The notes below the pieces were generated by a model. The model was not told the origin of the DNA. It made no database searches and saw only the letters and a program-made list of their open reading frames with translations. The position numbers were made by a program, and so were the translations under genes. From positions 3,316-67,315 of the forward strand of contig MJAN01000004.1 of assembly GCA_001875255.1 (NCBI GenBank): a stretch of 64,000 nt of DNA. The letters run 5' to 3'. This document shows, in pieces, positions 7,243-64,000 of this stretch. Origin of the DNA: Candidatus Sabulitectum silens (GTDB lineage: Bacteria > Fermentibacterota > Fermentibacteria > Fermentibacterales > JCC-6). The stretch's first letter is position 1; each line of letters starts with the position of its first letter.

Positions 7243-7801
7243 CCCTTTGCCCGTTCCATGTACTCTCCGGTCCTGGTATCTATTCTGATCCTTTCACCCT
7301 CTTTTACGAAAAGGGGCACCTGAACCACAAAGCCGGTTTCCAGTGTGGCCGGTTTCGTACCGCCGGTGGCGGTGTCACCCTTAAGCCCGGGATCGGATTT
7401 CGTGATGAGCAGCTCGACGAAATTGGGGGCTCCACCATTATCGGCTTGTCTCCAACGAAGAGCACGTCCACATCGGATCCGTCGGTGAGATAATTGACGG
7501 CATCGCCTATGAGCTCGGTGGATAGGTCGATCTGTTCGAATGAGTCGGGATCCATCACCGTGTACATGTCATCGGTGTGGTAAAGAAGCTGAAAGACCCG
7601 TCTTTCAAGGCGGATATCCTGAACCTTCTCGCCGGCGCGCCAGGTCTTCTCAAGAACTTTTCCCTGAAGAACATCCTTGAGCTTCGACCGGACGAAGGCA
7701 GCGCCCTTGCCGGGATTTACGTGCTGAAACTCAAGTATCGAATAGTACCTGCCGTCGATGTCGAGAACCATTCCTCTTCTGAAGTCGTTTGTCGAAGCCA
7801 A
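7239..7801 (-). CDS. efp: Elongation factor P (frameshift near 7425)
   Basis: [18 protein letters not shown]. The C-terminal [26 protein letters not shown] is in a shifted frame. Confidence 0.95.
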
Positions 7802-7807
7802 TGTGAA

Positions 7808-8245
7808 CTACCTCCGCAGAATTTCCCTGATTATGTCGATTGCTGAAATGTATCCCTGAATACCGGCGCCGGATATAACGGCATCGGCTCCCTGGGCGGT
7901 AAGCATACGATGCCGGTAGGGTTCCCTTCTGTGTATCGGTGAAATGTGAACCTCCACAACCGGACCATGAAACCCTCGCATGGCGTCAAGGAGGGCAACT
8001 GAAGTATGGGAAAAACCTCCGGGATTGATCACCAGTCCGCTGCTGCCGGTTGAGGCGGCGTTAACCGCACCTACCATACCCCCCAGGAGATCATACTGCT
8101 GGAAGGTAACGGCTAAGTCCCAGAGGCTGGCATGGGAACGGATCCTGCTTTCCAGTTCCTCCGGTGTTTCCCCTCCGTACACCTCAGGCTCCCGTTTGCC
8201 CAGCATGCCGAGGTTGGGTCCGTTGATCACCGCGATGGTCGTCAT
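7808..8245 (-). CDS. aroQ: Type II 3-dehydroquinate dehydratase
   Basis: INGPNLGMLGKREPEVYG, INPGGFSHTSVALLDA, VEVHIS..H.RE. Confidence 0.95.
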   Translation of the reverse strand: MTTIAVINGPNLGMLGKREPEVYGGETPEELESRIRSHASLWDLAVTFQQYDLLGGMVGAVNAASTGSSGLVINPGGFSHTSVALLDAMRGFHGPVVEVHISPIHRREPYRHRMLTAQGADAVISGAGIQGYISAIDIIREILRR

Positions 8246-8906
8246 TTGTCGTATGTGGAAAGCCCCAGTTCTTCGCATTCCTCCGGGGTAAAAAGATCAT
8301 AAAGGCTTCTGGGAGCCCTCTCCCCCCCTCGGGCCTTTCCACGGATGGGTTTTCCCCGGAAGCCGCAGGGATTTCCCCTGTGTTTTCCTTCCCCGGAGAG
8401 CCGCCTGTTTTCTGGGCGGCGAGTATGGAGGCCATCCTGCCGGTTTCCGGGTATTTCACGTCCTGTCCGGTGAGGCGGGCATCCCTGAGGCCCTCCTCTT
8501 TCTTCTTCCTGGCCTTTTCAAGAATTGCCTCTATCTCCGGGTCACCGGGATACTCAAAGAGGTACTCCTCGAACAGCTCAATGGAGCGATCCCAGTTTCC
8601 CTTCTCAAAATGGAGTTCTCCAAGGCTTTTGATCGCTATAAGGTTCAGGGGATCGATGGAGATGACCTTCTCGAACACAGCTGTTGCCTCTTCGGTGAGG
8701 TCATTGTCCAGGGCGCACCGCCCGAAGATGACATTTACCGATATGTTGTCGGGCCAGTCGGCCAGACCCTTTCGTGCGACATCCAGGGCCTCGCTGTTCC
8801 TTTCGATCCTGCGGAGTTTGCCCGCAAGCCGGACACAGATGGCGGGGGAAGGGTTTGAGAGCCAGATCTGATACAGCTCCTGAATTTCGTTTTCGCCGTT
8901 GGGCAT
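8242..8906 (-). CDS. Tetratricopeptide repeat protein
   Basis: Helical TPR-like repeats (EATAVFEKVISIDPLN; SIELFEEYLFEYPGD). The C-terminus is probably frameshifted. Confidence 0.7.
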
Positions 8907-52204: not shown

Positions 52205-55200
52205 CTATCTTCCACAGCAACGCTTGTATTTTTTGCCGCTGCCGCAGGGGCAGGGGTCGTTACGGCCGACCTTTTCCTCGGTGCGGACAACGGTCTGCTG
52301 CTTCCCCTCGGCGTTCCTGCCTGCCCCTGTCCTGTTGTCCCGGGCAGGGGGCATCGTTACGCCGGGGTGCACCGCCTGTCCGGCGGGACCCTGCTGCCTC
52401 TGTATTTTAGAGGCTGGCCATAATGATAGTATCTGCCTTACGGCCTGTTTGTCAATACCATCCAGTAGGTCCTCAAAGAGATTGAAGGCCTCCTTCTTGT
52501 ATTCAACCAGGGGATCCCGCTGGGCATAGGCCCTCAGGCCGATGCCGGACTTCAGGTGGTCCAGGGCGTATAGATGGTCACGCCACTTGCTGTCGATGGA
52601 GCTGAGGACCGACCACTTCTCGAGGTCGGTGAGCATCCGTTCACCAAGCTTCTCCCTCTTCTTGGAATAGTATTCCATGACCATGTCCACGATCCGGGAA
52701 CGGACCGCTTCGGGATCCCTTGAGAAATCCTCAATTCCCTGGAGCCTGAACATCATTCCAGAGAGGTCCCTGAGTATCACCTCGGCGGCGTCGGGGTTCC
52801 ATTCATGGGGTTCGGTGCCGTCGGGGAAGGCTTCCCTCACGGAGTGATCCGCCACGGCTTTGATCATCTCCTCCACCTCATCGGAAAGCCCCTCGCCGGT
52901 CAGGGCCTGGAGCCTTCTGCCGTATATGACCTCCCGCTGGCGGTTGGCCACGTCGTCGTATTCCAGAAGGTGCTTCCTGATCCCGAAGTGATACTGCTCC
53001 ACCCTTTTCTGGGCCTGCTCAATGGATTTCGTCAGCAGGGGATGCTCAATTGGTGCCCCCTCTTTCTCCTGGCTCTTCTTCAGGAAATCAATGATCTTCT
53101 CGCTGGCGAAGAGCCTGAAGAGGTCGTCTTCCAGGGAGAGATAGAAACGGCTTCCGCCTGGGTCCCCCTGCCTTCCGCTGCGGCCCCTGAGCTGCCGGTC
53201 TATCCGCCTGGATTCATGCCGCTCGGTGCCTATGACGAAGAGACCGCCGTCGATCTTTTCCCCCTCGGGGGTGGTGAGCTGCTTCACCTCCGGGGCCAGC
53301 TTGATGTCGGTGCCCCTTCCCGCCATGTTGGTGGCTATGGTAACGGCGCCCTTTCCACCGGCCCTGGCTATTATCTCCGCCTCCTGCTGGTGGTGTTTCG
53401 CGTTCAGCACACTATGAACTATCTTCCTGCGCTTGAGAAGCTTGGAAAGCAGCTCGGAAACCTCCACGGAAACGGTGCCCACCAGAATGGGCTGACCCAT
53501 GGAATGCCTGTAGGCTATCTCGTCTATTATGGCCGCGTACTTTTCCCTCTTGGAGGCGTAAACCCTGTCGTTGTGATCAACCCTGGCCACCGGTCTGTTG
53601 GTGGGAGCCACCGCCACGCTTATCTCGTAGATGCTTCCGAATTCCTCTTCCTCGGTTTCCGCGGTACCGGTCATGCCGGCGAGTTTTTCGTACATTCTGA
53701 AGTAGTTCTGGATGGTTATGGTTGCCAGCGTCTGGGTCTCACTTCTTATTTCAACGTTCTCCTTGGCCTCCAGGCCTCATGGAGGCCGTCGGAGAACCTT
53801 CTGCCGGGCATTGGTCTTCCGGTGAACTGGTCTACTATCACCACCCTGCCCTGGTCCAGCACATACTCCACATCCTTCTCGTAGAGCTGGTAGGCCTTCA
53901 GAAGCTGGTCGATGTTGTGAAGGGCCTCGGCCCTGCTGGTCTGGTTCTCGTATATCTGCTTTCGAAGTTCGAACTTCTCCGCCTCGGGAAGTTCCTTAGC
54001 CTCGAGTTCCGCCATCTCGTCGCCTATGTCACGAAGCAGGAAGAAGTCGGGATCCTCCGGGGAAAGCATTTTTCGGCCCATGTCCGATACGGAAACGGAT
54101 TTTCCCTCTCGTCGATGGCGAAATAGAGCCCTCGTCAAGTTCATGGATGTTCTTCTCCCGGAGCCTCTCCCCCTCGACCCTTTTCACCGCCGCGGCTATG
54201 TCCGGGTCCCGCAGGGCCTTTGTGAGCCTTCGATGCTTCGGGGCGCCCGCCTGGCCTTCAGGTACATCGTTGCGGCACCGTGGGTGTCGCCCTTTTCCCA
54301 CAGCTCGTTGGCGTCGGCCACTATGGTGTTCAGCAGTTCCGACTGCTTCCGCACGAGCCTGGCCACGGTGGACCGGTATTCCAGGTACTGGTTCCTGTTC
54401 CTGGCAACCGGGCCGCTGATTATGAGGGGGGTCCTTGCCTCGTCGATGAGAACGCTGTCGACCTCGTCCACGATTGCGTAGTGGTAACCCCGCTGGACCC
54501 TCTGCTCAAGCCTTACCGCCATGTTGTCCCGGAGGTAGTCGAAACCGAATTCGCTGTTGGTGCCGTAGGTTATGTCGCAGTTGTACTGCTCACGCCTCTG
54601 GTCCGGGGTCATTCCTCCCTGTATGCAGCCAACGGTGAGGCCCAGATACTGGTAGATGGGACCCATCCAGAGGGAGTCCCGGAGGGCAAGGTAGTCGTTC
54701 ACGGTGACAAGATGGGTGCCCCTGCCAACGGGAATACCCTCAAGGGGCTGAAAGACCCAGCCGTCGTAGTCCTCCCCGAACTCCGCCGAGGCAAGTTCCA
54801 CCCATTCAGGATTGAGGCGCAGGGCGTTGAGATACATGGGAAGCACGGCCACAAGGGTTTTCCCCTCACCGGTGGCCATTTCTGTTATCATGCCCCGGTG
54901 GAGGGTGATGGCGCCCTTCAGCTGAACATCGTAGGGGACCATGTTCCACACCTCGGACCTGCCGGTAACGTTCCATTCCCTGCCCAGGTTCCTCCGGCAG
55001 GCCTCCTTCACCACGGCGAAGGCCTCAACCATGATGTCGTCCACGGTTTCCCCCCGGAGCAGCCTTATCCTGAAGTTCTGAGTTCTGCTCTTCAGTTCCT
55101 CTTCAGAGAGTGACTCAAGTAGGGAGAACTCTTCGTTTATCTCCTGGACGAAGGGCTCCAGGCTCTTCATAAGTTTTGCCTGGCTGTCGCCGAGTATCAT

Positions 55201-55227
55201 TTTAACGAATTTACCAAACTTGCCCAT
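52205..55227 (-). CDS. secA: Preprotein translocase SecA (frameshifts near 54245, 54125 and 53775)
   Basis: [93 protein letters not shown]. Confidence 0.97.
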
Positions 55228-55532
55228 CAGGGAAAATCCTCCATGCATATTTCTGCGGCGGCATAACCGCCCAGGAGGGCCCCGGCCATGTCAGCCAGGA
55301 GATCGGAGGCCTGAAAACCCCCTCCCCTCCACTGGTCGTACAGTTCCTTCAAAAACCCCAGGCCTGCGGTGACTCCGGCGGATTCCAGGGGCCTGGATGT
55401 GGCCGCGGTGCCCAGGGAGGCAGCCGAGGCGGAGAAAGCAAAATGGTTCCACCCGTCGGATTGCATCACAGCGCCGCACCCGGAGAGGAACATAACGAAT
55501 AAAACCGGCGCAACGCACAGGGAAAACCTCAA
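55227..55532 (-). CDS. YfiM-like small membrane lipoprotein
   Basis: Lipobox LSGC; D..NHF..SA, G..KE.YD....GF...DL.AD.AG. Confidence 0.7.
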
Positions 55533-56440: not shown

Positions 56441-56838
56441 TAGAGGCCTCCCAGGTTAAGGTTCTCCTCGGGGAGGACCCCCCTGTAAACGATGGAGAAC
56501 ACCGTTCTGTCCGATGGCCTCCAGTCGAGCTGGAAACCGCCCAGAACATTGCCGAAATCGTTTCCGTCGCTGGAGAAGGTCATCAGACGGGAGTAACCCA
56601 TCTCAACCGTGGCGTCGAGCTTCGGGTGCAGGGCGAAGCGCATGCTTCCCAGGTATGTTCCACGGCCGTAGGAGCCGTACCTGCCCGAGGAATAGGAGAA
56701 GCTGGCCCGGCTGCTGAACTCCGGCTGAAAACCGGACCCGCCCCCCGGGAACCCCACGAGGTTGAAGCCCGAGGGGTCAAGACCGAAGGCCATGGCACCG
56801 GCTGACACAACGAGCAGAAGCATAATAACAGTTCTCAT
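56440..56838 (-). CDS. Secreted beta-rich hypothetical protein
   Basis: Signal peptide MRTVIMLLLVVSAGAMA; RBS GGAGG; alternating beta-strand pattern ending in LDWRPS. Confidence 0.7.
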   Translation of the reverse strand: MRTVIMLLLVVSAGAMAFGLDPSGFNLVGFPGGGSGFQPEFSSRASFSYSSGRYGSYGRGTYLGSMRFALHPKLDATVEMGYSRLMTFSSDGNDFGNVLGGFQLDWRPSDRTVFSIVYRGVLPEENLNLGGL

Positions 56839-56891
56839 AATGGAACCTCCATGTTAGACAGGTATATTACCTATACTGTGTTCCAGGGTCA

Positions 56892-57176
56892 ATGTTCCAG
56901 CAGAAAACAATGAAGGGCGTTTATGACAGAACTGCAGTACGCAGAGGGCGTGGTTTCAGAAGGGAGCCCGCCGGGGGAATACTTTTCAATGTAGACACCG
57001 GCGACCTCCAGGTGGCCGAGGGTGTTGCCTTCGGCATCTGCGACATGATAGACCACGGAGCCGAAAGGGATGACATTCTGACGGAGCTCAAGAAAAATTA
57101 CCCCGATCAGGACAATATAGAGCAGGACCTTGACCATTTCCTGGATGAACTCCGAAGCCGGGGAGCCCTGGCTTGA
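56892..57176 (+). CDS. PqqD-family RiPP recognition element (ScmD-like)
   Basis: FRRE..GGILFN.DTG......GVA..I...ID......I...L...Y.......DL..FL.EL...G. Confidence 0.85.
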   Translation: MFQQKTMKGVYDRTAVRRGRGFRREPAGGILFNVDTGDLQVAEGVAFGICDMIDHGAERDDILTELKKNYPDQDNIEQDLDHFLDELRSRGALA

Positions 57177-58224
57177 GTGAAGCACCCTACTGGGTCTCCC
57201 CCAGGGAGGCGAACCTGCTCATCACAGGTGGCTGCAACCTGAATTGCCGACACTGCTCTGTGCTAAGCTTCGGTGCCCTGAAGAAAGACCTTTCCCTGAA
57301 GAAATGGGCTGGCATTCTTGACGATCTGGCAGGGAACAAGCTGCTAAAACTCACCATCACTGGGGGCGAGCCCATGGCCAGACCGGACTTCCTCGAGTTC
57401 ATGGAAGAGGTTGCCCGAAGACCATTCAGGTACTCGGTGAACACCAACGGAACACTTGTCACCGGAGCGGTGATCAAAAGCCTCAGGAAGCACTCCGGAA
57501 GGCTGGACGACATAATGGTGAGCCTCGACGGCCCCGACAGGGGAACGATGGACAGCCAGCGGGGGAAAGGGGTATTCGACAGAATGGTCCTTGGAGTGAC
57601 GAAGATAAGGGAAGCCGGTCTTCCCTTCGGTTTTTACTGCACGGTGACCACGCTGAACATAGACAGGCTGGAGGAGACAGCCGAGCTGGCAACCACCCTT
57701 GGTGCAAACTGGATTAAGTTCAACCACTTTCTTCTGGCCGGCCCGGGGCTTGGCCTGGAGATTGTTCCCGGAGCAACAGAGATCACTGGTGCAGGGAAGA
57801 GATTAAAAAAATGTCAGAGTCAGATCCCGGCTTCATACAGGGCTCCATGGTGGAAACCGCCAGTTTCATAGAAACCATAAGGAAAAGGGGCGTTTCAACC
57901 GGGAACAACTCCGCTTTCCATTGCGGAGGGGGTTCACATAAGATAACGGTTTTCCCCGACGGAACCGTTACTCCATGCGACCACCTGCCGGATTACTCAC
58001 TGGGTAACATCCTGGAAAGGCCCCTCATCGATATCCTTCATGGTGAAGAGATGAAAAGGTTCACCGCTTTCGTGAACCAGCCCAAATCCAGCTACCGGGA
58101 ATGCAGGGACTGCGATCTCGCGGGGTTCTGCACCGGCGGCTGCCCGGTGGAGGCCCTTCTTTGGGGCAACAGGCTGAACCCCCACAGGATATCCTGCCTG
58201 AAACCCTGGATGGAAAACCCATGA
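57173..58224 (+). CDS. Radical SAM/SPASM maturase 1 (ScmE-like); frameshift at the A7 run 57805-57811
   Basis: ITGGCNLNCRHC, TGGEP..RPDF, NTNGTL, VSLDG, D..RG.G.F; SPASM C-GG...PDG.V.PC...C..C.....C.GGCP. Confidence 0.88.
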
Positions 58225-59253
58225 CAGAAAAGCCACCCCTGAAGGTCCTCTACATCAACCCCGCCGGGGCTGCAACCTCCACTGCAGCCACTGCTGGGTT
58301 AACGAGGGAACATTCGCCGGAAAACTCCTCACCGTTGATCAGTGGACCGAGCTGCTCAGGCAGGCGGTATTGCTGGGCTGCTCCTACCTGAAGCTCACCG
58401 GCGGAGAGCCCTTGCTCTACCATGGCTTCGTGGAGCTTTACGAAGGGGCTTCGGCAATAATTCCCGATGTTTCCGTGGAAACCAACGGAACACTTGAACC
58501 GGATGGTCTCTGGAGGGCATTTGCCGCGAATCCGCCCCACAATGTATCCATAAGCCTGGACAGCGCCAGCGAGGCAGTACACGATGAGTTCAGAGGCGTG
58601 CCAGGCTCATACAGAAAAACCCTGGCCTCGGGAAAAAGCTCGTGGCCGCCGGGATCCCCGCACAGGTAATCATGTCCATCTCTTCAACCAATCGTGGTCA
58701 GATCATTGGCATGATAGATCTCCTGGAGAAGATCGGCCTGAGGAACCTGAAACTTAACCTCATCACTCCCTCTGGCAGAGGAAAGGTTCTGAGCTTCCTG
58801 AAGGATAATGGTATCAAGGAGATAATGGATTTCCTCGAATGGGCCTTCAATGAGACACCGCCCTGGGTTCTGCCCACGGCTCCCCATGCCCTGACTCCTG
58901 TGAACAGGCTGGTTCAGCAGAGCAGCTGCCCGGTCCTTAACCTCATGGGAGTTCTTCCCGACGGCACCTATTCACTGTGCGGTGTGGCCTTCTCCCGGGG
59001 TGAAATGGCCTGGGGGAAATTCCCTGAAATGACCGTGGGCGAAGCCTGGGAAAACTCCCCTGTGTACAGAAGCATAAGGACCCGGATACCTGACAAGCTG
59101 GAGGGGGTGTGCGGCGATTGCATACACAGGGCGGGGTGCAGGGGAAGCTGCGTTGCCAACAACCTTGTTGCCGGCGGTTCTGTCAGCAGCCCCAACCCCC
59201 TGTGCCAGCTTGCCCTTGACAACGGCCTCTTCCCGAAGACCAGGCTCAGATGA
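58221..59253 (+). CDS. Radical SAM/SPASM maturase 2 (ScmF-like); frameshifts near 58267 and 58635
   Basis: Reconstructed PLKVLYINPAGGCNLHCSHCW, KLTGGEPLL, VSVETNG, SLD, HD.FRG, C....GVL.DG.YSLCG, LEGVCG.C.....C.GSCVA.N...C......FP..RL. Confidence 0.88.
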
Positions 59254-59780
59254 GTTCCCCGGAACGGAGCCTTCTGAGGGCTCTTTGCAGGGCAGTGATC
59301 CCTTCCGGAGCGGTACTGCACTCGTCCTGCGTGGAAAAGAACTCACAGGCATCATTGTTCCTGGGCAGGAGCGGCGGCGGAAAATCCACCATTGCCCACC
59401 TGGTTGCCGACGGCGGGGAGATATTCCTTCTGGAGGACGACGAAACCGTTGTTGCCCGGGGAACCGACGGCACGGTTCGGTGCCTCCCCACCCACAGGAT
59501 AAGGAGGCTCACCGGGGTGGAGCGTATTCCACCCGGTGTTCTCAAGAACCTCTTCTTCGTTGAGAAGGGAAGTGACACCCTGGTTCTTCCCGTTCCCTCA
59601 AAGTACGCCTTTTACAGGGCTGTCAGGATCGGTTCCTTCCTCGGAGCTCAGCTCCTCGATCCGAATGAGAATCATGCCCTTCTCAAGGGTATCCAGTCGA
59701 TCCTCGGCGGGTTTCCCTGCTTTATCGTCAGGTATTCGCCCCCTGTGAACCCCCATGATGTCATTGGAGATATGCTTTGA
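59250..59780 (+). CDS. HPr-kinase-like P-loop protein (ScmC-like)
   Basis: VLHSSCVE......LF.GRSGGGKST...LEDD, L..LFF.EK. Confidence 0.75.
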   Translation: MSSPERSLLRALCRAVIPSGAVLHSSCVEKNSQASLFLGRSGGGKSTIAHLVADGGEIFLLEDDETVVARGTDGTVRCLPTHRIRRLTGVERIPPGVLKNLFFVEKGSDTLVLPVPSKYAFYRAVRIGSFLGAQLLDPNENHALLKGIQSILGGFPCFIVRYSPPVNPHDVIGDML

Positions 59781-60180
59781 GCAGAAAGGGCGAACTTGGC
59801 TGGGTGAGGGGCATTTCCATGTGGCCCAACCTCCTTCCCGGCGACATTCTCAGGGCGGAACCCGTCCCCGCCGGGGACATTCGCCCGGGGATGGTGGTGG
59901 TGTTCCCTGGAAACCGGGCCGGCGGAGGGCCCTTCGTTCACAGGGTTCTCAGTGTGCGAATACTGGGGACAGGGCCTTCATAGCAACCGGCGGTGACCAA
60001 TCCGGAAGGGACGACTTCGTATCAGTATGCGAAAGCCGTCTGGAACTGAAAAGGATCACAGGTGTTCTCATTGCGGGACGGTACAGGAAGGTGGGAAACC
60101 TGAAAGTACCTCAAATGTTGCAAGGCAGGGTCAGGCTTATAAAAATCCACATCAGGATTGCCCGGAAACTTCTTTGGTAG
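59777..60180 (+). CDS. S24/S26 signal-peptidase-like protein (frameshift near 59967)
   Basis: VRGISMWPNLLPGD..., GMVVVF, FVHRV, T.GD...DD. Confidence 0.75.
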
Positions 60181-60207
60181 TATTGTTAAGGGATGAAGGG
60201 AGCGCAT

Positions 60208-60451
60208 ATGGTCTTTTTCCAGATAGATATTCAAAACCCCGCTTCTCTCCATAATAGAAGCCGGATCAACAGGCTGGGGTGCGACCTGCGATGTTGGCAA
60301 TTCTCCCCTCGGAGGAGGTTCCACGTGCAGCACCGGCAATAGAGCGGGATCCTCCGTTCAACCCGGGAAAACAGGCATTTTCAATAGCGGTTCCGAAGAC
60401 CCTGCAAGCAGCAGGCTTATAAACCCCGGGGATGTAAGCCGGGGTCTCTAG
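60208..60451 (+). CDS. Putative RiPP precursor peptide (ScmA-like) with CxxGN repeats; needs two single-base corrections
   Basis: RBS AAGGGAG then ATG at 60208. YSKP is in one frame, and the open frame 60227-60451 reads LLSIIEAGSTGWGATCDVGNSPLGGGSTCSTGNRAGSS... Confidence 0.65.
60423..60445. terminator. Hairpin between convergent genes (possible bidirectional terminator)
   Basis: ACCCCGG-N9-CCGGGGT. Confidence 0.4.
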
Positions 60452-61380
60452 GAATCCTTAGCGGCTCCGGGCTTTCCCAGGGCCGCAAGGGCGATAACAC
60501 CCAGAAGAACGCTGAACCACAGCGTGGCGAAACGCATCAGCAGTGTTGTTACCGTTGCCGCCGCCCCGGGCAGGTAATCCCCCAGTATTCCATCTATGGT
60601 CAGTTCAGTGAGGCCCAGGCCTCCGGGTATCATGGATACCGCCCCGGCCACGCTTCCCGCAGCGTGGGAAAGCAGGGAAATACCCGGGGGAAGACCGTAT
60701 CCCATTGAGGCGGCAACGGCGCTTAGCACCATGGCCTCTATTCCCCATGAGAGCATTCCCAGGGGAATGGACACCGCCATGCTTTTTCCGTTCAGAAGGA
60801 TTACCGCAGCCTCCCTGAAACCCTCGAAGGAATCGTTCCTCCGGGCCATGAAGGGGATCTTTTTCACCAGCTTCTCAAAGAGGCTCCAGGCCCTCCTGTC
60901 AAGCAGTATGAACATTGCAACGGCAACGAACACAACCCCGGCGGCGGAGGCGGGGATGCCCAGGGAGCTGCCTGTGAGAAGGGACCCCAGAAGTGCCAGA
61001 AGGACCATGCTGATAAGGTCCGTGAGTCTTTCGGCAACCACCACCGGGCTGGTCCTTTCCACCGGGATGTTCCGTCGTTTCTTCAATATGCCGCACTTGA
61101 GCAGCTCCCCCATCTTTCCAGGGGAAACCGTCATGGAGAACCCGGCTATGAAAACCAGCAGGCTCTCTCCGAAGGGTACCTTCGCGGTTATCCTGTGAAG
61201 GAAGTAGTGCCATTTCAGGAACCTGAGGAAGTAGTTCGCCAGGGGGAGAACGAGGAACAGGGGTATCCAGCCGGGATGGATTGAGCCGGCGGCCCCCATC
61301 ACCCGGCTGAGGTCGGAATGGAGGACAAGCAGTGTATAAAGGGCTATGGCCGCGATGAGGGCCCAGAGGGCTTTCTTCAT
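60448..61380 (-). CDS. Lysylphosphatidylglycerol synthase TM / UPF0104 flippase-like membrane protein
   Basis: NY.LRF.KW, SPGK.GE, ERL.D, PGGLG.TE, R.ATLW; real start MKKALW at 61380. Confidence 0.85.
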   Translation of the reverse strand: MKKALWALIAAIALYTLLVLHSDLSRVMGAAGSIHPGWIPLFLVLPLANYFLRFLKWHYFLHRITAKVPFGESLLVFIAGFSMTVSPGKMGELLKCGILKKRRNIPVERTSPVVVAERLTDLISMVLLALLGSLLTGSSLGIPASAAGVVFVAVAMFILLDRRAWSLFEKLVKKIPFMARRNDSFEGFREAAVILLNGKSMAVSIPLGMLSWGIEAMVLSAVAASMGYGLPPGISLLSHAAGSVAGAVSMIPGGLGLTELTIDGILGDYLPGAAATVTTLLMRFATLWFSVLLGVIALAALGKPGAAKDS

Positions 61381-62180
61381 TACTCGCCCGGGTCCGGCCC
61401 TTCCCCCGAAAGTACCAGAAGCTCCTCCTGAAGCTTCTTCGTTCCGGGCTGGGAGTCCAGTATCTTCAGGGCCTTTGCCGCAAGCCTTTTTGCCTCCCGG
61501 GGATCGTTCAGCTTCATGGAGCATCTTGCGGCCAGGCCAAAGGCCTGTGCCCTGCCCATTTTCGTTATGGGGCTGTCGGGAAGGAGTTCCGCAGAGGTTA
61601 TGGCGTGCATCCTGGCCCTGGAGTAGTCATCCTTCTTCATGTGAAGCATGGCCATGTTGAGATACACTCCGCTCTTTCCGGCGCCGTCCCTTTGCTCCAG
61701 GGCTTCTTCAAGGAGTTTCTCCGCCTCGTCCAGCCTCTCGTCAGCGTTTATCAGAAGTCCCGCCAGGTTCACCTTCATGGTCCCGGCCAGCTTCTCGTCG
61801 GTTTCTATGGCCCGGCGGTAGAACTTTTCCGCGTCGGCGTGGTCGCCCCTCTGCTGGGCTATGTAGGCCATCTGGGCCATGGCGGTCCCGCTGCCGTCGC
61901 CGGCACCCATTGCCTCCACCACCACCTTTTCCGCCCTGTCGGCGTCACCGCTCCTTATGAAATAGAAAACCAGGGCATTGGTAAGGGGGCAGGAGACCCT
62001 TTTTCTGTCTCTGTTGGCCTCGAGGTAGGCTATCATCTCGTCAACCTTCCCCGCCGCCGCCATTTCGGAGGCCTTCTTCAGCTGCTTCTGCTTCCATACG
62101 GGCGACTTTATCAGCCGGTATCCCAGAAAGACCGCCGCCGCGAGGAAAACCCCGGCTATGAGGAAAAGAAAGTTCTCCAT
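61380..62180 (-). CDS. Membrane-anchored TPR protein
   Basis: N-terminal TM ([20 protein letters not shown]) then TPR repeats; RBS GGAGG. Confidence 0.75.
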
Positions 62181-62181
62181 G

Positions 62182-64000
62182 TCAGATCCCTCCTCCACCG
62201 AAGTTCCTGTCGAATCGGAAAACTCTCCCAGTGTGGTGTCCGCGGAAAAACCGGTGCTGTCGGTGTGCAGCATGCAGGTTTCCGTGGGCGCCGTCCCCTT
62301 CCAGAAGTATTCTTCCCTGGAAAGCTCCGCGCATGCGCGTTGGCAAGCTGCCCTGTGATCCCGCAGATAATAGCCTGTTCCAGCTCGTCGGGCTCAGGAC
62401 CTGGGAATGTGGGAGCGGTGGACCGGTCGGCATCGGCGAATACCCTGCGCATGAAGCTGTTCCAGATGGGGAGCCCTATGCTGCTTCCCGACTGCCCACG
62501 GCCGTTCTTCAGCCGCATCCTGATTATGTGGTTGTCGTAGCCAACCCAGACCGATGCCACGAGGTCCGGGGTGAACCCAACGAACCAGGCGTCGGCGTAG
62601 TCGCTTGTGGTGCCTGTTTTGCCCCCGGCCTCCCTGCCGGCGTAGGGGCCTCCCCAGTACCATCCGCGCCGGCACCGGTACCAGACCTCAGTACCGACTG
62701 GAGCATGCTGTTCATCAGAAAGGCTCCGGTAACGCTGAGGACCCTCCTGCCCGGGTCCGGCCGTTCGTTGCTCTCCAGAAGATTTCCCATGCGGTCCTCA
62801 ACCCTGAGAATGGCCGTTGTGTTCATGGCGAGCCGCCTGTGGCGAATGGAATGTATGCCCTTGCCATCTCCAGGGGGTTGGCGTAGCAGCTGCCCAGGGG
62901 CAGGGAGTTCACTATGGGAAGCCTTGAGGTAATGCCCATGGAAACCGCCCTGGCGGCTCCGGTCTCTATTCCAACGGCATCCCCCAGTCTTACCGCGCTC
63001 ACATTGTATGACCGTGCCAGGGCTTCACGGAGGGTAACCATGCCATGGAACTGAAGGTCGTAGTTCCTGGGGCGCCAGGTGCCCGGGTTAAGGTCTACCA
63101 CCACCGGCTGATCCAGAATGACACTTCCCGGGGACCAGCCCTGTTCTATGGCCTCGGCGTAGTAGAAGGGCTTGAATGAACTGCCGGGCTGCCTTCTGGC
63201 CTGGGTTGCCCTGTTGAACTCGCTGTCCTGGAAATCCCTTCCCCCGACCATCGCCCGTATGTAGCCTGTGGTGGGATCCACGGCCACCAGGCTCCCTGAA
63301 TGTAGTCCGGAGCCCCTGAGGTGGTGTCCTTCACCGCCTGCCAGTGTTCCCATGAGCTGTTGTAACGAAGCCGGTCGGTGCTTTCGCTCCAGGTACCGGT
63401 TTCAGGGTCCCAGACCGGTTCCTTGGAGGTTAGAACGCTGTCTATGGCCATTCTGGCGTGCTCCTGCATTTCCGGGTCCAGTGTGGTGTGCACCACGAGA
63501 CCCTGCTCGTACACCGCTGACCAGCCATATCGGCCCACGAGATATTGCCTTACATACTCGGTGAAATAATCCCAGTCCTGCTCCAGTTCATAACGGTGGA
63601 CCTCCACCGCCAGGGGCAGCGAGGAAGCCTCCTGCCTCTGTTCCGGTGAAATGACGCCGTGATCGGCCATCATGGATAGGGCTATGTTGCGCTGGGCCAG
63701 GCACCTGTCAGGATTCCTGAGGGGATTGAAACCGCTGGGGTTCTTTACCATTCTAACCAGTACCGCCGACTGGGCAAGGGTGAGTTCCGCGGCGGAAATG
63801 CCCCCGAAGTATGTGCGGGCGGCGGCTTCTATTCCATGGGCTCCGGACCCGTAGTAGATCTGGTTCAGGTACATCTCCAGTATCTCATCCTTGCTGAACT
63901 GCCGCTCGATCTCCATGGCGATGAAGGCCTCCTGGAGCTTCCTCTGGAAGGTCTGGTCCTGAACCAGGAAAAGCCCCCGGGAAAGCTGCTGGGTAATGGT
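62182..64000 (-). CDS. Class A penicillin-binding protein 1A (5' end beyond window; several frameshifts)
   Basis: [24 protein letters not shown]...[34 protein letters not shown]. Confidence 0.92.

Follow-up and report, generated by a model that had tools for sequence, protein, structure and literature searches.

We analyzed a 64,000-nucleotide stretch of contig MJAN01000004.1 from Candidatus Sabulitectum silens (hereafter the window; positions refer to it) and found a cassette of six co-directional plus-strand genes at 56923-60451, flanked on both sides by minus-strand genes. The genes encode, in order, a PqqD-type recognition element (RRE) of the kind that serves peptides made by the ribosome and modified after translation (RiPPs), two radical S-adenosylmethionine (SAM)/SPASM enzymes resembling ScmE and ScmF, a ScmC-like P-loop protein, an S26 peptidase, and a precursor peptide (order D-E-F-C-peptidase-A). 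These names follow the SynChlorMet (SCM) system, which is defined by the NCBIfam/TIGRFAM models TIGR04248-TIGR04252 for ScmD, ScmC, ScmE, ScmF, and the precursor ScmA, respectively. We show below which genes it contains, that they are intact and conserved, that the precursor is cognate to them, and that the two radical SAM enzymes are orthologous to ScmE and ScmF. We consider it highly probable that this is an intact SCM-type RiPP cassette with this peptide as its substrate, a judgment that does not extend to the chemistry. The genes of the cassette are as follows.

56923..57176, plus strand: PqqD-family RRE (ScmD-like), about 84 aa (PF05402, tblastn against a congener)
57173..58224, plus strand: ScmE-like radical SAM/SPASM enzyme (TIGR04250, PF04055, PF13186, tree)
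58221..59253, plus strand: ScmF-like radical SAM/SPASM enzyme (TIGR04251, identity to a congener, tree)
59250..59780, plus strand: ScmC-like P-loop protein of 176 aa with a predicted HPrK/PEPCK-like fold, an intact open reading frame (ORF) (TIGR04249, AF2 model with Foldseek)
59777..60180, plus strand: anchor-less S26B (Sec11-type) peptidase, about 134 aa (TIGR02228, motif conservation, SEC11 profile matches)
60208..60451, plus strand: ScmA-like precursor, about 81 codons after two base repairs (hidden Markov model [HMM], alignment, hhalign)

Four-nucleotide stop/start overlaps (at 57173, 58221, 59250, and 59777) join the first five genes, and between the peptidase stop at 60180 and the precursor ATG at 60208 there is a spacer of 28 bases that carries GAAGGGAG, a Shine-Dalgarno-like site. 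A preliminary description of this DNA had reported these overlaps and the orientation of the six genes opposite to the surrounding minus-strand genes, and our analysis confirmed both. The domains that it had listed (an RRE, two radical SAM/SPASM enzymes, an HPrK-like protein, and an S26-like peptidase) agreed with the Pfam and NCBIfam matches, and the Cys/Gly/Ser-rich peptide that it had named is present.

As assembled, the cassette contains seven frame breaks in 3.5 kb. We checked the base counts of the region 56800-60500 against Logan contigs of four public runs, all from one bioreactor-metagenome study, one of which may have supplied this DNA. The bases added in the run contigs (runs are labeled X1, X2, and so on) were as follows.

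After 56953, PqqD gene: T added in runs X1 and X2
After 57804, ScmE-like gene, at a run of 7 A: A added in X2, AA added in X1
After 58265, ScmF-like gene: G added in 4 of 4 runs
After 58627, ScmF-like gene: T added in X2 only
After 59964, peptidase gene, at a run of 4 G: G added in 4 of 4 runs
After 60213, precursor gene: T added in X1, X2, and X3
After 60240, precursor gene: G added in one X2 contig, at a depth of 28 of 103.9

At every site, by frame arithmetic, the contig of at least one run carried one added base that restores the frame of the homologues. Runs of 3 to 7 identical bases mark five of these seven sites. With intact homologues as tblastn queries, the enzymes could be followed past the breaks in another frame. 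One extra difference, a deletion at 58470, was seen in an X3 contig of low depth and probably arose as an error there. The missing T after 56953 creates a false ORF start at 56892, which the preliminary description had taken for the start of the cassette; the real PqqD start is the ATG at 56923, from which the repaired N terminus reads in the frame of the homologues. Beyond the cassette, SecA (53746-55248, minus strand) and a PBP1A-type transglycosylase/transpeptidase (62823-64000, minus strand) are each split into several ORFs, and frame-breaking base-count errors thus run through the whole contig. Because these housekeeping genes are also split, and because the breaks are repaired in the run contigs, we attribute the breaks to assembly error and not to pseudogenization: the cassette genes are intact, and all seven breaks are bases missing from the assembly. 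Homopolymer errors in this assembly hide a whole operon, including a peptide gene that is seldom called in any case.

The precursor illustrates this point. It was absent from the ORF listing because the breaks at 60213 and 60240 split the gene, in keeping with an earlier warning that frameshifts would conceal the cassette, and we recovered it by joining three frame pieces with the insertions after these two positions. A precursor profile matched the peptide in its own genome (E, 2.5e-23) and, when run against five genomes, gave a single match in every one. The homologous precursors have 62 to 86 residues, and an alignment of 16 of them contained ten invariant positions (F4, Y8, P11, L13, G23, W24, A26, C28, G31, and C41). 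These mark out a leader motif, F-P-x-x-Y-x-K-P-x-L, with a fixed distance of 20 residues from the Tyr to the first Cys, and a junction, G-W-x-A-x-C-x-x-G, which is followed by a second C-x-x-G. These precursors, which we call compact, as we do the cassettes that go with them, have 2 or 3 Cys and a tail of 19 to 38 residues past the last Cys with a conserved R-L-x-N-P-x-D...G-L end.

We gathered 50 ScmA-like small ORFs from more distant SCM-like loci, and these carried a Y-E-K/P-P leader and repeated C-x-x-G. The distant peptides in the alignment had 3 to 10 Cys, and one further peptide (L087; L and G numbers denote loci and genomes) had 14. Gly stood at position +3 after Cys in 36 of 42 compact cases and 232 of 259 distant ones, and G or A stood at position -2 in 31 of the 50 distant peptides. 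An hhalign comparison of the 16 compact precursors with the 50 ScmA-like peptides returned a probability of 96.3% (E, 1.7e-9; 49 columns). A word-indexed search of 5.8 billion proteins found 24 relatives of the compact peptide at an E of 0.001 or less; their names were uninformative ("hypothetical protein"; three from Candidatus Aegiribacteria), and none had a Pfam domain. Homologues with a Shine-Dalgarno site stand directly behind the peptidase in L023 (two copies), L024, L025, L027, L029, L031, and L034, of which L029, L031, and L034 belong, together with L043-L045, to more distant Fermentibacterota in which the peptide holds this position. The two copies in L023 (genome G011; 7352-7609 and 7805-8065) are tandem, 86% identical, and each equipped with its own Shine-Dalgarno site; G031 also gave two precursor-profile matches. 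The terminal position that the preliminary description had singled out holds in the window but is a trait of the family, for which a precursor model (ScmA, TIGR04252) was already cataloged. Judged by these sequence comparisons, the small gene is a real precursor that is cognate to the cassette.

Both radical SAM/SPASM enzymes scored above the Pfam gathering scores for PF04055 (82.6 and 41.9 bits) and PF13186 (53.0 and 25.4 bits). The CX3CX2C motif and seven SPASM cysteines are conserved in the ScmE-like family and invariant in 10 of 10 ScmF-like sequences, with the Cys columns of both families present in 9 to 10 of 10 sequences, and both enzymes look catalytically competent in this respect. 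Identity to the congener was 60% and 41%, in two frames, for the ScmE-like enzyme (tblastn) and 56 to 58% for the ScmF-like enzyme. ScmE and ScmF were the top-ranked families despite low scores, with ScmF scoring about twice as high as the next family. On the intact congener locus L021, the AhbD and NirJ2 models scored 97.7 to 120.2 bits and NirJ 88.6 to 93.8 bits, against cut-offs of their own of at least 500; the AhbD, NirJ2, PqqE, and MftC models scored about half of ScmE/ScmF or less, and PapB, StsB, and AlbA models were also among the matches. The closest solved relatives of the ScmE-like enzyme were CteB (5wgg, the best, 2e-14), PqqE, and SkfB, and those of the ScmF profile were PqqE (top, 8.3e-31), SkfB, and others. 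In a FastTree phylogeny of 172 ScmE/ScmF-type sequences, with the E and F labels assigned by HMMs built from the compact proteins, the two types separated with a support of 1.0. Within either type the compact proteins grouped together, all 15 of 15 in a single clade (support, 0.999 and 0.988); that of compact ScmE was nested beside nine distant ScmE sequences (support, 0.892), and the placement of the compact ScmF clade had a support of 0.111. By this tree, one enzyme is the orthologue of ScmE and the other that of ScmF.

The cassette is conserved among relatives. Open homologues of the ScmF fragment, at 50 to 62% identity, were present in 15 of 18 same-genus genomes. The order PqqD-ScmE-ScmF-ScmC-S26 was kept in 10 of 14 loci from related genomes (L021-L034) and in all 7 of the closest public loci (L040-L046). 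In an eleventh of the 14, L026, the contig breaks off within the cassette, and only ScmF-ScmC-S26 is seen. A search for related loci with the ScmF fragment of the window alone found no relative, but an alignment-based scan succeeded. When we scanned 41 related genomes with the peptide and short-ScmC profiles, 21 had both, 17 had neither, 2 had ScmC only, and 1 had the peptide only. Precursor and cassette co-occur even where they lie on different contigs (G014, G005, G003, G001, G006, and G021). In G014 the precursor is on another contig than the enzymes, and in G007 and G018 it lies on the opposite strand at distances of 1.6 and 4.7 kb. It is convergent with a homologue of the LPG_synthase_TM gene in five loci (the window, L023, L035, L037, and L038), an adjacency that we read as retained synteny. 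The compact form has so far been seen only in Fermentibacterota-type records.

The three remaining proteins fit such a cassette to different degrees. The PqqD protein matched PF05402 at 32.3 bits (cut-off, 23.4) and had 69% identity to a congener PqqD (tblastn). The predicted complex of PqqD with residues 1 to 45 of the precursor had an ipSAE of 0.37 against 0.00 for the best control, a weak pass. Among 80 solved complexes, 58 reached this mark, 7 of them at 0.60 or below; among 110 mismatched pairs, 2 reached it, both at 0.60 or below. The runs agreed in at least 73% of contacts, and the partner pLDDT was at least 50. This modeled score may reflect likeness to solved RRE-leader complexes of other families. 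In a related locus (L022 of G018; 7645-8892, minus strand), we also noted an ORF with a PqqD domain that is open for 415 codons upstream.

The ScmC-like protein has 166 to 178 aa in 15 of 16 aligned sequences, with one ORF call of 196 aa, and conserves a Walker A motif, S-G-x-G-K-[ST]-T, in which the P-loop is invariant, and a D-D pair. Its best-matching families were ScmC and HprK-related kinase A; it matched TIGR04352 weakly (20.5 bits in the window and 25.2 bits in a relative). An AF2 model of a congener protein (pLDDT, 92.2) had HprK/P (1kkl; E, 4.7e-5; TM, 0.43) and PEP carboxykinase as its top Foldseek matches, at TM scores of just 0.43 to 0.57, and a profile search of the PDB with the alignment gave P-loop-level matches only (best E, 0.008). 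In the peptidase, G-x-S-M-x-P, H-R, and G-D were invariant in 17 of 17 aligned sequences, and its profile matched SEC11C (E, 1.3e-14) and SEC11A (E, 6.8e-14). The N-terminal fragment from the window scored 24.9 bits and L021 36.1 bits against TIGR02228 (archaeal-type signal peptidase I), short of its cut-off of 51.85, which the long peptidase of the canonical-type locus L106 passes at 55.4 bits. Pfam, PF10502 included, gave no family for the window fragment, and a Foldseek search with the peptidase model placed signal peptidases and LexA at the top with no match at an E of 0.001 or less. The alignment of the compact peptidases (127 to 142 aa) shows no N-terminal hydrophobic anchor.

Taken together, these features suggest how the cassette may work. 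The PqqD-like RRE would bind the leader motif F-P-x-x-Y-x-K-P-x-L, whose Tyr precedes the first Cys by exactly 20 residues, and the ScmE-like and ScmF-like enzymes would then modify the two or three C-x-x-G modules. Thioether cross-links are the likeliest chemistry at C-x-x-G, although we hold this choice tentatively and give it somewhat less than an even chance; it is a guess that takes other SPASM maturases with Cys-rich substrates as its model, among them the recently reported CrpC/CrpA pair (PMC13692751). Other radical chemistry, including at the invariant Trp, is the alternative. The HPrK-like P-loop protein might carry out a step that needs ATP, for example by phosphorylating Ser/Thr in the peptide, to which we give clearly less than an even chance. 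Leader removal would fall to the S26 peptidase, as a cytoplasmic Ser/His enzyme, and would take place close to or at the invariant G-W-x-A, two residues ahead of the first Cys. Functions for export and for any nucleotidylation would have to come in trans, since the ABC/NTP_transf_5 pair found in relatives is absent at the window locus. A more specific proposal is that the always paired ScmE and ScmF, with the HPrK-like protein, install on the C-x-x-G modules a modification pattern new to any RiPP class and that in the compact form this pattern also involves the conserved tail and the invariant Trp, which stands four residues ahead of the first Cys, for example as a Trp cross-link or a phosphorylated or nucleotidylated tail; we think this conjunction rather unlikely. 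If it were true, the Fermentibacterota peptide would be a minimal substrate for solving the chemistry of the orphan SCM family as a whole. In any case, the compact form, with its small enzymes, two or three modules, and fixed spacing, offers a practical entry to a peptide chemistry that pairs two radical SAM enzymes with an HPrK-like protein. The record titles of the SCM family, which is widespread in anaerobes, span Desulfobacterota, Chloroflexota, Planctomycetota, Omnitrophota, methanogens, and others.

It is important to note that several observations weigh against reading the locus as an SCM cassette with this peptide as its substrate. The ScmE-like fragments in the window scored 104.7 and 46.9 bits against TIGR04250 and the ScmF-like fragments 46.3 and 138.7 bits against TIGR04251, while the intact enzymes of L021 reached 166.6 and 238.4 bits; both models have a cut-off of 400. 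The preliminary description had held that the enzymes closely resemble ScmE and ScmF; these are their best families and their orthologues, but with such scores the wording is too strong. TIGR04249 (ScmC; cut-off, 125) gave 26.3 bits for the window and 22.3 bits for L021, over positions 113 to 191 of 292. The window protein had no match to TIGR04248 (ScmD; cut-off, 100) at an E of 0.01 or less, with 16.5 bits for L021, and none of five compact precursors matched TIGR04252 (ScmA; cut-off, 35 bits) at an E of 1 or less, the peptide of the canonical locus L106 itself reaching only 20.1 bits. The check with the TIGRFAM Scm models thus ranked ScmE and ScmF first and left all five families below cut-off. 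Moreover, the compact tail of 19 to 38 residues has no counterpart in canonical ScmA (median, 7), the predicted PqqD-precursor complex is weak, and the window locus has no ABC exporter, NTP_transf_5, regulator, or immunity gene. Run support for the repairs was not unanimous at 57804, 58627, and 60240; the two added bases of X1 at 57804 would not restore the frame, and two of the seven repairing insertions (58627 and 60240) occur in a single run only. Two genomes (G009 and G025) have ScmC without the precursor and one that is 90% complete (G008) has the precursor without the cassette, and since the 41 genomes are related, not independent, and in several cases incomplete, their co-occurrence counts overstate the support. 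All the proteins being far below the NCBIfam cut-offs, we treat the cassette as a divergent compact Fermentibacterota subfamily of SCM and not as a member by cut-offs.

The explanation that competes most seriously with a modified peptide product is that the peptide serves as the scaffold of a redox cofactor that acts inside the cell, in the manner of PqqA for PQQ and MftA for mycofactocin, and is not secreted. The pairing of PqqD with a PqqE-like radical SAM/SPASM architecture, PqqE as the top solved relative of the ScmF profile, MftC-type models among the matches, and the missing exporter at the window locus all agree with this view, as do the vertical conservation of the cassette within the genus beside housekeeping genes and its unremarkable GC content. 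Nevertheless, an ABC exporter adjoins the compact cassette in L021, L040, and L045; the core is variable (2 or 3 Cys, with 3 to 10 and once 14 in distant peptides), whereas cofactor precursors have a fixed Glu/Tyr or Val-Tyr; the cassette has no dehydrogenase linked to it as a partner; and G011 carries tandem precursor copies that differ in sequence. We therefore give the cofactor explanation only a small chance. A reading on which the small ORF is no substrate at all, but a conserved neighbor of the LPG_synthase_TM locus while the enzymes act elsewhere, could appeal to the weak complex prediction and to G014, G007, and G018, where the peptide stays by LPG_synthase_TM and the enzymes are elsewhere or 1.6 to 4.7 kb off on the other strand. 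Yet the presence and absence of the peptide track the cassette (21 genomes with both and 17 with neither), its leader and C-x-x-G are homologous to peptides in the SCM loci of other phyla, for which no LPG_synthase_TM neighbor is listed, and it lies directly behind the peptidase in L029, L031, L034, and L043-L045, which makes mere adjacency very unlikely.

Two further explanations would remove the cassette from peptide modification or from function altogether, and we find both extremely improbable. That the radical SAM proteins are heme- or cofactor-pathway enzymes such as AhbC/AhbD or NirJ could appeal to the AhbD, NirJ, and NirJ2 models among the matches; still, these score at about half of ScmE/ScmF or less and far under their own cut-offs, the tree places the two proteins within the ScmE and ScmF clades, and both are translationally coupled to the RRE, peptidase, and precursor. 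The preliminary description had named clustering with cofactor enzymes and the lack of a conserved peptide as what would speak against it, and we found lower scores for AhbD, NirJ2, PqqE, and MftC and a conserved peptide that accompanies the loci. Decay into a pseudogene cluster would account for seven frame breaks in so short a region, but single inserted bases in the run contigs repair each break, most sites are homopolymers, SecA and PBP1A are broken too, and the orthologues are open in 15 of 18 congeners. An intact SCM-type cassette acting on this peptide remains the explanation that we favor.

In the window, the cassette is preceded by minus-strand genes for SecA, a small lipoprotein-like protein, a TPR protein, and a 132-aa protein and followed by minus-strand genes for the LPG_synthase_TM membrane protein (60448-61524), a TPR protein, and PBP1A. 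The host metagenome-assembled genome is 2.9 Mb in size and 71% complete. GC content across the cassette was 0.52 to 0.61, the same as in the flanks, and horizontal acquisition, which we considered, found no support in it. Scans for promoters (3 promoter-like sites against 1.6 +/- 1.1 expected) and terminators (3 terminator-like sites against 5.6 +/- 2.6 expected) found nothing beyond chance. One further feature was read from the sequence.

60424..60446, no strand assigned: inverted repeat (CCCCGG...CCGGGG), 3' end of the precursor gene

This repeat sits where the precursor gene meets the stop of the convergent LPG_synthase_TM gene, and the terminator scan did not call it because no T-run follows. 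It encodes the last nine codons of the precursor (60424-60451), and the stop codons of the two genes overlap.

Relatives carry additional genes at this point. An ABC exporter (minus strand) and then NTP_transf_5 (PF14907, plus strand) stand directly behind the compact cassette in L021 (7641-10487), L040 (4568-7406), and L045 (7350-10176), and the same pair stands behind canonical-like cassettes in L030 (8447-11290) and L058 (7884-10727). The earlier remark that the locus lacks an ABC transporter and a nucleotidyltransferase is thus correct for the window but does not characterize the compact cassette. Elsewhere in the genome that holds the window, on contig C2 and near a contig end, is an NTP_transf_5 homologue (58% identity); with neither an ABC nor an SCM neighbor, it is uninformative. 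Also near the end of contig C2, in G000 (L120, 8185-8460), is a 91-codon ORF with a signal-peptide-like N terminus and a very Cys/Glu-rich body; it adjoins an ORF of the size of an ArsR-like regulator and may encode a metal-binding peptide. Upstream of the relocated cassette in G014 (L021), a 497-aa ORF (114-1607) has a weak radical SAM-type match (32 bits to the ScmE HMM), and beside it a 181-aa ORF (1864-2409) contains a G-H-C-G-S-S-C motif; the two may be a second peptide-modification neighborhood.

Comparison with canonical SCM loci separates what is shared from what is particular to the compact form. Both have a PqqD-like protein, paired radical SAM/SPASM enzymes, a P-loop protein related to HPrK, and a precursor in which a Y-x-x-P leader is joined to Cys repeats with C-x-x-G modules. 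Across 73 distant loci, many on truncated contigs, HMMs found ScmE in 64, ScmC in 49, S26-like genes in 42, and PqqD in 41, and ScmA-like ORFs were present in 46. The canonical-type locus L106 passes three models (ScmE, 625.6 bits; ScmF, 610 bits; ScmC, 286.9 bits) and has a small ORF with a sub-threshold ScmA match, and a 221-codon stop-to-stop S26 frame adjoins its ScmC, as an S26-like gene does in L066. The dedicated peptidase that the preliminary description had taken as a trait of this variant is therefore, like the terminal precursor, widespread in SCM-like loci, and both are family traits and not inventions of this variant. The differences lie elsewhere. The compact ScmC has about half the length of its counterparts, which fill a 292-position profile and stop-to-stop frames of 311 to 312 codons in L066 and L106; the compact peptidase has 127 to 142 aa against canonical stop-to-stop frames of 215 to 221 codons, which possibly include upstream noncoding codons; and the compact precursor has few modules (2 or 3 Cys), the invariant G-W-x-A, the fixed 20-residue spacing, and the long conserved tail. 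On this evidence from sequence, the cassette is a compact Fermentibacterota subfamily of SCM. To our knowledge, the SCM family is chemically unstudied. A literature search, which covered main texts, returned no paper that names SynChlorMet or TIGR04248-TIGR04252 and no characterization, and the main text of one radical SAM paper (PMC10288494) makes no mention of the SCM families.

Among better-known systems, CteB (5wgg), PapB, SkfB, and AlbA are similar in being radical SAM/SPASM enzymes that act on Cys-containing, leader-bearing peptides. SCIFF, ranthipeptide, and sactipeptide systems differ in having a single maturase with a fused RRE and neither an HPrK-like protein nor an S26 peptidase, and the similarity of the compact enzymes to SCIFF and sactipeptide maturases is low, with scores far below cut-offs. 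The substrate motif of PapB-type enzymes, C-x3-D/N, is unlike the C-x-x-G context here. Paeninodin-type lasso kinases and HprK-related kinases A/B resemble the cassette in placing an HPrK-like protein by a PqqD-type RRE, with NTP_transf_5 and an ABC exporter in relatives. Lasso kinases phosphorylate a C-terminal Ser; their systems differ in that the compact cassette has no lasso cyclase or B2 protease and its P-loop protein is only a core of about 170 aa, the size of the catalytic domain. PMC13692751 describes CrpC, a SPASM radical SAM enzyme of Methanococcus voltae that installs ranthionine thioethers on CrpA, and CrpA shares with our precursors an N-terminal leader-like region and repeated Cys motifs. 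CrpC differs in belonging to the TIGR04463 family and in working as the only enzyme, with an RRE of its own, on a substrate that is a large protein with C-X-X-Q/D repeats; its three-gene cluster is without a kinase-like or peptidase gene (PMC13692751). Finally, the peptidase shares with Sec11/SipW-type S26B enzymes the Ser of S-M-x-P, the His of H-R, and the G-D box, and it weakly matches the NiSOD protease model TIGR02754; it differs from them in being anchor-less, much shorter, and part of a RiPP-type operon.

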